A DNA stretch of 64,000 bases from an uncultured Cytophagales bacterium (lineage in GTDB: Bacteria > Bacteroidota > Bacteroidia > Cytophagales > Cyclobacteriaceae): the NCBI GenBank assembly GCA_942491425.1, contig CALOAV010000030.1:50934-114933 (forward strand), written 5' to 3'. The notes beneath the pieces are model-generated. The model was not told the DNA's origin. It made no database searches and saw nothing but the letters and a program-made list of their open reading frames with translations. This document shows, piece after piece, positions 34,289 to 48,782 of this stretch (the first letter of the stretch is position 1; each line of letters begins with the position of its first letter). A program made the position numbers and the translations under genes.

Positions 34289-34338
34289 GCTATTCTTATA
34301 TATTTACGTTCAACAATTGCTAAGAAGGGTACAAAGAA

Positions 34339-34376
34339 ACAAAAAAGCCCTCCGACGGCAAGTCAGAAGGCTTTTG
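34339..34376 (-). terminator. Rho-independent terminator downstream of a small basic ORF
   Basis: Minus strand: aagccttctgacttgccgtcggagggcttttttgtttc. Confidence 0.55.
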
Positions 34377-34397
34377 ATATGATTTAACCAAACTGAT

Positions 34398-34549
34398 TAT
34401 TTACCAGCGGCTTTAAACTCTTCTTTGATCTTCTCAATATCAACATTCTTAATCACCGGCTTAGCACCCTGAATTTGCATGTGCAGCTTTCTAACTTTTG
34501 ATTTAGAACGGTCTTTGCGAAGTTTTCTCTTAATACGGGTTACACTCAT
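34398..34549 (-). CDS. Small basic protein (50 aa), hypothetical
   Basis: ATG..TAA ORF below the 60-aa track cutoff (MSVTRIKRKLRKDRSKSKVRKLHMQIQGAKPVIKNVDIEKIKEEFKAAGK); has its own terminator; very basic N-terminus. Confidence 0.35.
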
Positions 34550-34619
34550 GACTCTTATTTTAGGAGTGCAAAAGTAAACGGTTTCTTCCGCTTTGGCAAC
34601 CCCTTTCTCTAATTATTCA

Positions 34620-35140
34620 TCCGGAATTGAACCATTAACAACGACCCAGAGTCAAAAATCGGTAATTAAACTCCCGATTCTGGTTCGTGGAGTTAAGGAT
34701 CATGGAAGAGGGTTTGGGCTCCTGATTCTGGTTCGTGGAGACACGAACCATGGCAGAAAGGGCAGAAAGGATCATAGAAGAAGGTCTGGGCAGGGATTTT
34801 GGTTCGTGGAGACACGAACCATGGCAGAGAATGAACCAGAGTCAAAATCGGTAATTGGCTCCCGATCTGGTTCGTGGAGTTAAGGATCATAGAAGAGGGT
34901 TTGGGCTCCTGATTCTGGTTCGTGGAGACACGAACCATGGCAGAAAGGATCATAGAAGAAGGTCTGGGCAGGATTTTGGTTCGTGGAGACACGAACCATG
35001 GCAGAGAATGAACCAGAGTCAAAATCGGTAATTGGCTCCCGATCTGGTTCGTGGAGTTAAGGATCATAGAAGAGGGTTTGGGCTCCTGATTCTGGTTCGT
35101 GGAGACACGAACCATGGCACCATGGAAGAAGGTCTGTAAG
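34620..35140. repeat. Higher-order tandem repeat family A (about 180-bp units x3, built from about 60-bp subunits). Each subunit carries hairpin GGTTCGTG-GAGA-CACGAACC followed by ATGG (five full and three truncated copies)
   Basis: Read directly; perfect 8-bp stem, GAGA (GNRA-type) loop, CCATGG adjacent. The 'spacers' between hairpins themselves repeat, so this is not CRISPR. Confidence 0.9.
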
Positions 35141-35700
35141 GATACAGAATGCACGGGTCGGGACCAATTTGGGTGCGAAACCCACGGTCAGTGTCTTCAA
35201 AGACCATCATCACCTTCCAATTCTATCCCTATTCATGACCGTGTCATTAAAGATCATCATTCATTAACCCGGCAAATAGCCAATTTGGAAGCGAATCCAT
35301 GGTCTGTGTCTTCACAGACCATCATCACTTAACAATTCTACCCTATTCATGACTGTGTCATTACAGACCATCATTCATTAACCCGGCAATAGCCAATTTG
35401 GAAGGCGAATCCATGGTCTGTGTCTTCACAGACCATCATCACTTAACAATTCTACCCTATTCATGACTGTGTCATTACAGACCATCATTCATTAACCCGG
35501 CAATAGCCAATTTGGAAGCGAATCCATGGTCTGTGTCTTCACAGACCTTCATCACTTACCAATTCTATCCCTATTCATAACCGTGTCATTAAAGATCATC
35601 ATTCATTAACCCGGCAATAGCCAATTTGGAAGCGAATCCATGGTCTGTTTCTTCACAGACCTTCATCACTTACCGCTCAAAAAGCCAATTTTGAGCCGAA
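35140..35700. repeat. Higher-order tandem repeat family B (about 120-bp units x about 4.5, built from about 60-bp subunits) carrying CCATGG plus hairpin GGTCTGTG-TCTT-CACAGACC
   Basis: Read directly. The hairpin is the inverted-orientation counterpart of the family A hairpin, with compensatory stem changes (tc/ga versus ct/ag). Ends about 40 bp before the hisS start. Confidence 0.9.
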
Positions 35701-35741
35701 ATAATGCCAATACCCAAAATGATAATTAGCTTTGCTCCAAT

Positions 35742-37106
35742 ATGGAAAAACCCACCTTACCAAAAGGAACCCGCGATTTTGGACCGGCAGTTATGGCTAA
35801 ACGCCAATTTATCCTGAATACTATCCGATCTGTTTTCCGAAAATATGGTTTTCAGCCGCTGGAAACCCCTGCAATGGAGAATCTTACTACCCTAACGGGA
35901 AAATACGGGGATGAGGGCGATCAACTACTTTTTAAGGTTCTGAATTCAGGTGATTACCTGAAAAAAGCTGACGAAAAAGCGCTTGCCACAAAGGATTCTA
36001 AAAAACTAACGCCGGAAATCTCCGAAAAAGGACTGCGCTATGATCTTACCGTTCCCTTCGCCCGGTTCGTAGTGATGAACCGCAACGATATTGCTTTTCC
36101 ATTTAAACGCTACCAGATCCAACCCGTATGGCGTGCCGATCGACCCCAAAAAGGACGCTACCGCGAATTCTATCAATGCGATGCAGATGTGGTGGGTACA
36201 AAAAGTCTGATCTGCGAAGCGGAAATTATTTTGATGATCAAAGAAGTCATGAAAGGATTGAACTTTTCTGACTACACCATCAAAATCAACCACCGTGGTG
36301 TACTGATGGGATTGGCAGAAATCCTGAATGCAAAAGGAAAAGAAAGCGATCTATTTGTTGCGATTGATAAACTCGACAAAGCAGGAAAAGATAAAGTAAA
36401 AGAGGAACTGGAAGGAAAAGGGTTTTCTGCTGATCAGGTTGAAAAACTTTATACCTTCCTTATCCCAAAAGGATCAAACACTACCACACTGGAATATTTA
36501 AAAAATTCATTTGCGAAGACAACAGAGGGATTAAAAGGATCCGGTGATTTAATGGATGTTTTTTCTCTACTCAAAAATTATAATGCATCAGATGAAAATG
36601 TTGAACTCGATTTGTCATTAGCCCGCGGACTTAGCTATTATACAGGATGTATTTTCGAAGTGAAAATCAATAACGTCGGTATTGGTTCGGTCAGCGGTGG
36701 CGGACGGTATGATGACTTAACCGGTAATTTTGGTTTACCGGATGTATCGGGGGTTGGGTTTTCTTTCGGAGTAGACCGGTTGTACGATGCCCTTGAAGAA
36801 CTCAACAAGTTTCCAAAAGAAGCGACCATTACCTCCACCCTGTTACTTTGTCATTTTGACGAAGCCAGTTTCCACTATGGATTAAGTGTCCTTTCGAACG
36901 TGCGGGAGGCGGGCATCGCAGCAGAGATTTATCCCGATCAGGCCAAACTCAAAAAACAACTTGATTTTGGGAATAAAAAACAAATCCCGTTTACTGTGGT
37001 GATTGGCTCCGATGAAATGAAATCGGGTAAACTTGTTTTGAAGAGTATGGAAACCGGTGAACAGCAAACGCTTACCCTGGAATCACTCATTACTAAACTA
37101 CGCTAA
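35742..37106 (+). CDS. hisS: Histidine--tRNA ligase
   Basis: 454 aa; class II aminoacyl-tRNA synthetase motifs; typical HisRS N-terminus KGTRDF; C-terminal anticodon-binding domain. Confidence 0.95.
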   Translation: MEKPTLPKGTRDFGPAVMAKRQFILNTIRSVFRKYGFQPLETPAMENLTTLTGKYGDEGDQLLFKVLNSGDYLKKADEKALATKDSKKLTPEISEKGLRYDLTVPFARFVVMNRNDIAFPFKRYQIQPVWRADRPQKGRYREFYQCDADVVGTKSLICEAEIILMIKEVMKGLNFSDYTIKINHRGVLMGLAEILNAKGKESDLFVAIDKLDKAGKDKVKEELEGKGFSADQVEKLYTFLIPKGSNTTTLEYLKNSFAKTTEGLKGSGDLMDVFSLLKNYNASDENVELDLSLARGLSYYTGCIFEVKINNVGIGSVSGGGRYDDLTGNFGLPDVSGVGFSFGVDRLYDALEELNKFPKEATITSTLLLCHFDEASFHYGLSVLSNVREAGIAAEIYPDQAKLKKQLDFGNKKQIPFTVVIGSDEMKSGKLVLKSMETGEQQTLTLESLITKLR

Positions 37107-37110
37107 ACGA

Positions 37111-38603
37111 ATGGTTCATTCCATCTCCAATAAAAAAATTGAACTGACCGATCTGCAAGCGCTCTTGCAACAAAATATCACGTTGGAACTTTCACCTTCA
37201 GCGAAAGAAAAAATTACAAATTGCCGGGCGTATCTCGATACCAAACTAAAGGAAGCCACCAGACCTATTTACGGAATCAACACAGGTTTCGGTTCCCTAT
37301 ATGGACAAAACATTTCCAATGATAATCTTGAAAAACTTCAGGAAAATTTAGTGAAGTCGCACGCCTGTGGAACCGGACCCGAAATTCCGGAAGACCTGGT
37401 GCGAATCATGCTTTTCTTAAAAGTGCAATCACTGGCATACGGAAATTCCGGCGTACAATTGGAAACGGTTCAGCGACTTGTTGATATGTTTAATAACCAT
37501 GTATCTCCTGTCGTTTATGAAATGGGTTCGCTCGGTGCTTCAGGAGATCTGGCTCCACTTGCGCATTTATCGTTACCACTCATTGGTCTAGGGGAAGTCA
37601 ACTCACAATCAGCAAAAGATTGTCAGGAGCTGATATTAATCAGAAATTACAATGGGAATCCATCCATTTAAAAGCTAAAGAAGGATTGGCTTTATTGAAT
37701 GTAACACAATTCATGAGCGCATATGGTACCTGGTGCGTATACCATTCCCACCGGCTGCTCAAACTTTCCAGTCTGATCGGTGCACTTTCACTGGATGTTT
37801 TTGATGGTCGTATTGAACCCTTTCTTCCACAGGTGCATGCCATCCGCCCACATTCCGGACAAGGAAAAATCGCGGCAGCTATTAAAGCCATTTTATCGGA
37901 CAGTGAATTAATCAATCAATCTAAAAAACATGTGCAGGATCCCTACTCTTTCCGGTGCATGCCCCAGGTACATGGTGCCAGTTTAGATGCAGTGGAGTAT
38001 GTCACGCAGGTTTTTATCACCGAGATCAATAGTGTAACGGATAACCCCAACGTTTTTCCGGAAGAAGATATGATTATATCCGCCGGAAATTTTCATGGCC
38101 AGCCACTTGCCCTGGCGCTGGACTTTTTAAGCATTGCAATAGCTGAATTGGGTAGTATTTCTGAACGGCGCACGTATCAATTAATCTCAGGTTCGCGCGA
38201 TTTACCCAATTACCTTGTTGCCAATCCTGGTATCAATTCAGGATTGATGATACCGCAATACACGGCTGCTTCGCTGGTGAGTCAGAACAAGCAACTTTGT
38301 TCGCCTGCTTCTATTGATTCGATTGTCTCTTCCAATGGACAAGAAGATCATGTGAGCATGGGTGCCAATGCGGCAACAAAAACGTATCGGATTATTAAAA
38401 ATTTATATTCCATTCTGGCGATTGAGTTGTTAACCGCATCGCAAGGGCTTGAATTCAGAAGGCCGGTAAAAACGTCGCCTCAATTGGAAACTTTTGTGAA
38501 TACTTTCAGGACGGTTATTCCGTTTATTGAGGAAGACCGGGTATTGCATGAAGATATGATGAAAGCTGAGAAATTCTTACAAGCGATTGAACTAGAAGCA
38601 TGA
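37111..38603 (+). pseudogene. hutH: Histidine ammonia-lyase, reading frame broken by two single-nucleotide insertions in A-runs around 37640-37675 (possibly sequencing error)
   Basis: ORFs 37057-37671 and 37620-38603 together cover a full HAL; the MIO-forming ASGDLAPLAHL motif is present. Removing one A from cagaaatt and one from tttaaaag restores LILIEITMGIHPFKAKEGLALLN, matching the expected 25-residue spacing between GEV and KEGL. Confidence 0.8.
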
Positions 38604-48709: not shown

Positions 48710-48782
48710 GCGGGAGTAGCTCAGTTGGTAGAGCGGCAGCTTCCCAAGCTGCAGGTCGCGAGTTCGAGACTCGTTTCCCGCT
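48710..48782 (+). tRNA. tRNA-Gly (anticodon CCC)
   Basis: Manual cloverleaf: acceptor GCGGGAG/TTCCCGC; D-arm GCTC/GAGC; anticodon stem GCAGC/GCTGC with loop TTCCCAA; T-arm GCGAG-TTCGAGA-CTCGT; discriminator U73; no encoded CCA. Confidence 0.85.

Follow-up and report, generated by a model that had tools for sequence, protein, structure and literature searches.

A probable in-place amplified cluster of Bacteroidota REP hairpins in the divergent spacer upstream of hisS in an uncultured Cytophagales bacterium

We analysed a block of about 1.1 kb of repeated hairpins directly upstream of hisS, the gene for histidyl-tRNA synthetase (HisRS), in an uncultured Cytophagales bacterium (contig CALOAV010000030.1, positions 50,934 to 114,933; this 64,000-nt stretch, the whole of the DNA analysed, is called the window). 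The block is most probably, with a probability of roughly 0.8, a cluster of repetitive extragenic palindromic (REP) elements that belong to a Bacteroidota family of REP-associated tyrosine transposases (RAYTs; subclass 2.6, or Group 5) and that were amplified in place by tandem duplication. A first-pass annotation, made from the letters alone, had compared the layout to REP arrays or bacterial interspersed mosaic elements (BIMEs), and this comparison found support: the hairpin family is dispersed, extragenic and phylum-wide, and it flanks RAYT genes in inverted orientation. The locus is thereby removed from the candidates for an unknown structured element, its hairpins being REPs of a Bacteroidota RAYT lineage; it is a kind of selfish repeat already known, not a new RNA or regulatory system.

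Two facing arrays of hairpins

The block occupies a divergent spacer of 1192 nt that separates a 50-aa open reading frame (ORF; 34397-34549, minus strand) from hisS (35742-37106, plus strand). Repeat arrays were delimited by Tandem Repeats Finder, which returned the following:

Array A, 34646-35119, plus strand: period 177 nt, 2.6 copies, 93% matches, sub-periods of 61 and 71 nt; direct-repeat family D1.
Array B, 35164-35674, plus strand: period 114 nt, 4.5 copies, 93% matches; direct-repeat families D2 and D3.

Together with the counts of hairpin cores, these arrays bear out two tandem-repeat families with oppositely oriented CCATGG hairpins, as first described. The 177-nt unit of array A is made up of three subunits of about 60 nt, and its REPs lie in the orientation termed R on the plus strand (purine loop GAGA, CCATGG foot at the 3' side). 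Its hairpins, GGTTCGTG-GAGA-CACGAACC, are present in five perfect and three truncated copies, and the core GGTTCGTGGAGACACGAACC has five mismatch-free occurrences in the window compared with 0.01 expected. The 114-nt unit of array B combines one REP in the F orientation (CCATGG foot at the 5' side, loop TCTT) with a decayed REP and with GCCAATTTGGAAGCGAA, copied from the native flank. Hairpins of the form GGTCTGTG-TCTT-CACAGACC number five in this array (three perfect), accompanied by four decayed copies; the core GGTCTGTGTCTTCACAGACC occurs five times in the window (three perfect, one with one mismatch and one with two) compared with 0 expected. The first-pass annotation had placed a perfect hairpin in each subunit of about 60 nt, which did not hold: in three of eight A subunits the hairpin breaks off within the loop, and alternate B subunits carry the decayed sequence CATGACYGTGTCATTAMAGAYCATCAT.

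REP orientation is uniform within array A, and opposite and equally uniform within array B, so that each array is head-to-tail and the two arrays face each other; the regular alternation of orientation that characterises BIMEs is not seen in either. The B hairpin is the reverse complement of the A hairpin except for the stem (TC/GA versus CT/AG) and one loop base, and the double, compensatory stem change reported at first reading is real. Folding of the hairpins as single-stranded DNA gives about -10 kcal/mol (z = -5.3 to -5.7). With a length of 24-26 nt, a stem of 8-10 bp and a loop of 4 nt, the elements are short palindromes of the REP kind. The spacer of array A also holds a remnant similar to the 3' half of a B-type copy (inverted-repeat pairs I1, I2, I22 and I23), which suggests an earlier inverted duplication. 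The elements and remnants, with the native flank that follows them, are as follows:

34682-34698, minus strand: truncated REP, one arm and part of the loop, with a GGTTCGTGGAG/TTAAGG junction; the breakpoint lies inside the loop.
34869-34885 and 35046-35062, minus strand: truncated REPs identical to the copy at 34682-34698, with the same loop breakpoint.
34729-34753, minus strand: full REP of the TTCGTG stem type, TGGTTCGTG-GAGA-CACGAACCATGG; on the minus strand it reads CCATGGTTCGTGTCTCCACGAACCA, the family consensus.
34800-34824, minus strand: full REP, TTCGTG type; core match.
34916-34940, minus strand: full REP, TTCGTG type; single-stranded DNA fold -10.5 kcal/mol, z = -5.3.
34977-35001, minus strand: full REP, TTCGTG type; core match.
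35093-35117, minus strand: full REP, TTCGTG type, the final element of array A; core match.
35131-35148, minus strand: decayed REP of the TCTGTG type at the A/B junction, GGTCTGTA-AGGA-TACAGA; inverted-repeat pairs I3-I6.
35182-35207, plus strand: degenerate REP, TCTGTG type, CCACGGTCAGTGTCTTCAAAGACCAT; two mismatches in the 20-nt core.
35234-35260, plus strand: decayed REP CATGACCGTGTCATTAAAGATCATCAT; more copies at 35348-35374, 35462-35488 and 35576-35602.
35297-35322, plus strand: full REP CCATGGTCTGTG-TCTT-CACAGACCAT with a 10-bp stem; single-stranded DNA fold -10.3 kcal/mol, z = -5.7.
35411-35436, plus strand: full REP, TCTGTG type; core match.
35524-35549, plus strand: full REP, TCTGTG type, 8-bp stem, then CCTT; core match.
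35638-35663, plus strand: REP with one stem mismatch, GGTCTGTT...; core match.
35684-35701, plus strand: native, unduplicated flank GCCAATTTTGAGCCGAAA, the template of GCCAATTTGGAAGCGAA in the B units; it matches GCCAATTTGGGGACGAAA at the REP-free site of two relatives (L129/L130).

The last partial B unit extends to about 35701, roughly 40 nt short of the hisS ATG at 35742. The block had also been judged not to be an array of clustered regularly interspaced short palindromic repeats, and rightly so: such arrays have unique spacers, whereas here the spacers repeat along with the hairpins, with periods of 177 and 114 nt and 93% identity. Likewise, the three ORFs called inside the block are artefacts, as first proposed. 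They gave only sub-threshold noise against Pfam and are missing from relatives, and the ORF spanning array A owes its open frame solely to a repeat period, 177 nt, that is divisible by 3. Annotation should treat these ORFs as artefacts.

The hairpin family across Bacteroidota and its RAYT genes

The query CCATGGTNNGTGTCTNCACNNACC was searched against the GTDB species-representative genomes (185,579 genomes, 596 Gb). It was found in at least 119 stretches, compared with about 4 expected by chance (an estimate from the number of specified bases), and 132 copies from these stretches form the basis of the covariation and location counts. Among the matches listed, about 116 of 119 stretches bear Bacteroidota names, and the few other labels are contigs of metagenome-assembled genomes (MAGs) and one likely chance match in a GC-rich gene. 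Carriers include Pedobacter, Sphingobacterium, Chitinophagaceae, Cyclobacteriaceae, Spirosomataceae, Ekhidna and Marinoscillum, and the family is dispersed over Sphingobacteriia, Chitinophagia and Cytophagia, with several loci per genome (at least six contigs of a Telluribacter MAG and at least five of Pedobacter fastidiosus). The family unit, of 24-26 nt, consists of a CCATGG foot, an 8-10-bp stem GGTNNGTG/CACNNACC and a TCTY loop, with the consensus CCATGG-GTNNGTG-TCTY-CACNNAC-CAT.

The stems vary in sequence and keep their pairing. The two free stem pairs are Watson-Crick complementary in 110 of 132 copies, compared with about 6% expected by estimate, and fall into ten stem types (TC/GA 50, CT/AG 24, TT/AA 21, and others), while 128 of 132 have C or T at the free loop position. 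Arrays A and B represent the two commonest stem subfamilies of one family, and this is what the compensatory change between them reflects; the view that the stem is selected as a structure is upheld. An array of transcription-factor operators was rejected as a candidate, since the stems co-vary rather than keep one sequence.

Copies are strongly biased towards spacers. Only 13 of 132 lie within ORFs of at least 120 aa, which cover 79% of the background (p = 4e-66), leaving 90% extragenic. REP-bearing spacers are enriched for convergent ones (21/82 versus 58/446 in the background) and depleted of divergent ones (7/82 versus 78/446). Many copies are doublets with an inverted partner 15-45 nt away, ttcGGTYYGTG-GRGA-CACRRACCgagg, which is the REPIN layout. 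In spacers between same-strand genes (L001-L119), a mild bias was noted, the CCATGG-first (pyrimidine-loop) orientation being on the non-coding strand in 36 of 54.

Among the matches listed, 7 of 119 loci carry a RAYT-like ORF of about 185 aa with the motifs NH[IL]H...WQRD...Y[IL]HxNP. Aligned, the seven proteins share invariant N73 H74 H76, W129 Q130 R131 D132 and Y150 H152 N154 P155. All three proteins scanned matched NCBIfam NF047646, 'REP-associated tyrosine transposase' (E 1e-18 to 4e-23; one above the curated cut-off), three of four gave a weak match to Pfam Y1_Tnp, and the best PDB match of the RAYT profile was E. coli TnpA_REP (4ER8). Hairpins flank all seven genes on both sides, within about 50 nt and inverted, with the TCTC loop (F) on the left and GAGA (R) on the right; this is the REPtron layout. 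The stem type around these genes is uniform per genome, as in the eight GGTGCGTG copies at the L023 gene, and the REP at 34729-34753 in the window is identical in sequence to REPs flanking the RAYT genes of L063, L069 and L077. An end of an IS200/IS605 insertion sequence or a miniature inverted-repeat transposable element was rejected: the genes fit the RAYT model rather than that of IS200, and the units are not bordered by terminal inverted repeats or target duplications.

Subclass 2.6 of TnpA_REP is described from Bacteroidetes, with the motifs NH[LIV]H, WQ and YIH[QN]NP and a length of about 179 aa (Quentin et al. 2018, PMC6006769, Table 1); atypical secondary structures that lack GTAG lie on the flanks of its genes and recur at other places in the genome (Quentin et al. 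2018, PMC6006769). Flanking 16-mers of Group 5 RAYT genes are as frequent as those beside insertion sequences (Bertels et al. 2017, PMC5581495). By motif signature, length and taxon, we assign the genes found here to TnpA_REP subclass 2.6, or RAYT Group 5. The foot agrees with this assignment: it is CCATGG, as expected for subclass 2.6, and not the canonical 5' GT[AG]G of subclasses 2.2, 2.4, 2.5 and 2.7. For a Cytophaga hutchinsonii gene, Table S1 of the subclass description already lists the REP CCATGGTCTGTGGCACACAGAAC, CCATGG-TCTGTG (Quentin et al. 2018, PMC6006769), and the statement at first reading that no Bacteroidota element of this architecture had been described is superseded by that entry and by the subclass 2.6 REPs of the same paper. 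Full-text literature searched with the core sequences gave no other description, only unrelated primer coincidences.

These data leave very little room for the block being an inert minisatellite of purely local origin, with no relation to a mobile or dispersed element, the least credible of the explanations weighed here. The hairpin does occur at no other place in the window, and the arrays did expand by tandem duplication that included native flank. However, an identical core is present in at least 119 stretches of other genomes, almost all Bacteroidota, and beside RAYT genes, and the closest relative has it both at the orthologous site and on a different contig. At first reading, absence of the core from other genomes had been named as the observation that would favour a minisatellite; when this was checked, the core proved widespread.

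Compared with known systems, the family is closest to the subclass 2.6 REPtrons (PMC6006769; PMC5581495), with which it shares the transposase signature, the length of about 180 aa, non-GTAG hairpins, inverted flanking and copies elsewhere; the C. hutchinsonii entry in Table S1 (CCATGGTCTGTG...CACAGA; PMC6006769) is the same motif as array B. The structures were called atypical and weaker in that paper, having been found by manual inspection and without a consensus (PMC6006769), whereas here they resolve into a defined CCATGG-foot hairpin with an 8-10-bp stem and a TCTY loop that is common to three classes. A REP family known as 'atypical secondary structures' and one supplementary-table row thus gains a sharp consensus and a phylum-wide distribution. 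Unlike the subclass 2.6 REPtrons, the window has about 18 copies or remnants in tandem without a nearby RAYT. It shares with E. coli BIMEs (BIME-2) the intergenic REP clusters, the tandem-amplified composite unit and a copy number that varies between related genomes; BIME REPs differ in that they alternate, have a GTAG foot and usually occupy 3' ends or convergent spacers, whereas in the window they are head-to-tail within arrays that face each other in a divergent promoter spacer. Pseudomonas REPINs (Bertels and Rainey 2011, PMC3116915) are likewise inverted REP doublets able to fold as one long hairpin, as seen at L121, L122, L082 and many other loci, and the doublets in relatives are, like REPINs, vertically inherited at a fixed site across species; the window differs in its higher-order tandem arrays, its foot and its RAYT subclass. 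The CGTC-tagged Bacteroidetes REPs (Di Nocera et al. 2013, PMC3733652) have a similar stem of 8-9 bp and loop of 4-5 nt, are extragenic and occur in the same phylum; they have a CGTC instead of a CCATGG foot and no associated transposase, whereas the present family flanks RAYT genes. The block is an unusually expanded REP cluster, and its head-to-tail layout and divergent-promoter site are unusual for REPs.

Two further observations concern REPs in other genomes. In the Telluribacter MAG (L014 5040-5114 and 7790-7866; L089), runs of 7-8-nt tandem repeats (such as cagctatcgg) stand before the REP, and about 70 nt downstream are identical at several loci, which suggests a larger composite repeat containing the REP. 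Partial REPs that end in or just past the loop (CCATGGTYYGTGTCT) were seen in L011 (3522-3600), L024, L080 (5375-5415), L042 (2902) and L115 (5630-5760), often stacked in tandem, such as three 19-nt units in L011.

Orthologous sites and growth of the block

The HisRS of the window has its best named matches in Ohtaekwangia, Chryseosolibacter and Chryseolinea (69-71% identity), which places it in an uncultured Cytophagales lineage; the closest relative by HisRS (89%) is a MAG that carries the label Cyclobacteriaceae. Relatives keep the genes in the order xth, small ORF, hisS, hutH, and the spacer edges are conserved in all near ones. The spacers compare as follows:

L129/L130: HisRS 85%; spacer 148 nt; REP-free, native GCCAATTTGGGGACGAAA present.
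L120, L121: HisRS 86% and 89%; spacer 201 nt; one REP and a decayed inverted partner.
L122: HisRS 86%; spacer 216 nt; doublet and a partial copy.
L124-L128, L131: HisRS 80%; spacer 284-307 nt; module of about 110 nt duplicated, with a 22-nt partial copy once or twice depending on the sample.
L135-L138: HisRS 72%; spacer 178 nt; unrelated sequence.
Window: HisRS 100%; spacer 1192 nt; arrays A and B.

The 22-nt partial-REP unit of the 80% relative, CTGGGTCTGTGTCCTCACTCTC, is found in one or two copies, depending on the sequencing run behind the contig (284/285 versus 307 nt). Three short-read contigs (L132-L134) start exactly at a REP, which marks the site as polymorphic and prone to break assemblies. 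At L135 (2823-3000; also L136-L138), the same divergent spacer has a different motif array in place of a REP, with inverted halves: about 8 GGATT motifs, then about 12 AATCC motifs. Running from an empty site to a 1-kb array, the orthologous spacers offer a natural series for studying the growth of REP clusters and any influence on nearby promoters.

The REP is dispersed in this clade, because another contig of the closest relative's MAG (L082) also carries a REP doublet, giving at least two loci in that MAG (L121 and L082). The arrays grew by tandem duplication in place and not by repeated insertion, because every B unit contains a copy of the native flank. The comparison of syntenic loci shows that the starting point in this lineage was a REP doublet between the divergent promoters of the small ORF and hisS. 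This was followed in the present genome by a roughly tenfold growth, in which tandem duplication of modules that included native flank gave two facing head-to-tail arrays. Replication slippage or unequal exchange between direct REP copies may account for this growth, possibly started or helped by RAYT nicks. By analogy with HUH Y1 enzymes of the RAYT and IS200/IS605 groups (E. coli TnpA_REP, IS608), the hairpin is expected to form on single-stranded DNA and, together with its foot, to be recognised and cleaved in trans by a RAYT whose gene lies at another place in the genome. Such recognition of a single-stranded hairpin would account for the conservation of pairing over that of sequence and for the coexistence of two REP subfamilies that differ in stem type (A = TTCGTG, B = TCTGTG).

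A stronger version, in which the arrays are footprints of RAYT-catalysed amplification in place and not of passive slippage, is unlikely on present evidence. It is consistent with breakpoints at the loop end (GTGTCT in L011, L024, L080 and L042; GGAG/TTAAGG in array A) and with the 22-nt partial copy that is polymorphic between samples of one relative. The loop breakpoints of partial copies, in other genomes and in array A, may mark either a nicking site or a slippage hotspot. If they are the cleavage and rejoining site of subclass 2.6, the locus series would offer a first stepwise view of how a REP cluster is built, and it would provide a defined substrate for an uncharacterised RAYT class.

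That assembly error accounts for part of the block's size, with the repeat copy number inflated or mis-joined, appears distinctly unlikely. Only one assembly is available, the neighbouring hutH has two 1-nt insertions relative to relatives, small indels separate repeat units, and in a relative the REP is the exact point at which short-read contigs break (L132-L134). On the other hand, the units differ by ordered substitutions (93% identity, not 100%), both flanks join correctly onto conserved promoter sequence, and an artefact would alter the copy count and not the nature of the element. Scans of metagenomes with a B-unit-specific 30-mer and a 32-mer of the conserved hisS promoter gave no match.

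Several observations weigh against a RAYT-family REP cluster amplified in place. No further A or B hairpin was found in the rest of the window, even with relaxed criteria, so that REP density is low here. Searches by motif and by tblastn with two RAYTs found no RAYT in the window or the retrieved flanks of relatives. Classical REPs have a GTAG foot, alternate in orientation in BIMEs and avoid divergent promoter regions; this locus, unlike them, has a CCATGG foot and head-to-tail copies, and it is a divergent spacer, although only 7 of the 82 REP-bearing spacers are. The copy number rests on a single assembly, whose quality is made uncertain by the frameshifting indels in the adjacent hutH.

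Promoters and neighbouring genes

TAnnTTTG is the known -7 consensus of Bacteroidetes. Only two matches to it are present in the region, both outside the arrays, each just upstream of its own gene and pointing away:

34569-34576, minus strand: -7 box TACTTTTG of the divergent 50-aa ORF, outside the arrays; kept in relatives.
35727-35734, plus strand: -7 box TAGCTTTG of the hisS promoter, fitting TAnnTTTG, 8 nt before the hisS ATG; kept in all near relatives.

Judged by this consensus, the boxes are predicted to be the promoters of hisS and of the small ORF, and the arrays probably lie upstream of both, outside either mRNA. A multi-copy small-RNA locus, or a structured 5' leader regulating hisS with the hairpins acting as RNA, had been raised at first reading. 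Stable hairpins with covarying stems would suit RNA as well as DNA, and the block stops about 40 nt from hisS. Nevertheless, Rfam gave nothing in the region when the whole window was searched at the gathering threshold, and only chance-level matches for 34300-35800 at E <= 10; the only -7 boxes lie outside the arrays and face outward; syntenic relatives whose HisRS is 80-89% identical carry 0-2 copies; and the same hairpin stands beside unrelated genes across the phylum and flanks RAYT genes. We consider an RNA function highly improbable on these grounds. We found no evidence for an RNA role or a hisS-regulatory role of the arrays, because Rfam was null, relatives have 0-2 copies and the arrays are placed upstream of both predicted transcription starts.

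Another possibility is that the cluster was co-opted as a protein-binding or architectural module that insulates or tunes the divergent promoters, its expansion being adaptive. E. coli BIMEs bind IHF, gyrase and Pol I. A REP is retained at this spacer in several species, the arrays put 1 kb between two promoters that are both left intact, and a more distant relative has an array of a different motif (GGATT/AATCC) at the same site. Against this, L129/L130 have a REP-free spacer of 148 nt, the copy number varies even among samples of one species and looks neutral, and we know of no binding protein in Bacteroidota. Co-option seems to us improbable.

The 50-aa ORF (34397-34549, minus strand) encodes a very basic protein, MSVTRIKRKLRKDRSKSKVRKLH..., with no Pfam match; all near relatives carry its counterpart, of 51 aa, between xth and hisS, and in the 72% relative the gene encodes 60 aa. 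Directly downstream of hisS, hutH (histidine ammonia-lyase, 37111-38600) is split over two frames, with residues 1-164 in frame 1 up to 37602 and residues 168-496 in frame 3 from 37614, a split caused by two 1-nt insertions that L120 and L121 lack; either the gene is a pseudogene or the assembly has indel errors. A tRNA gene at 48710-48782 (Rfam RF00005, 64.8 bits) is the only gathering-level Rfam match in the window.

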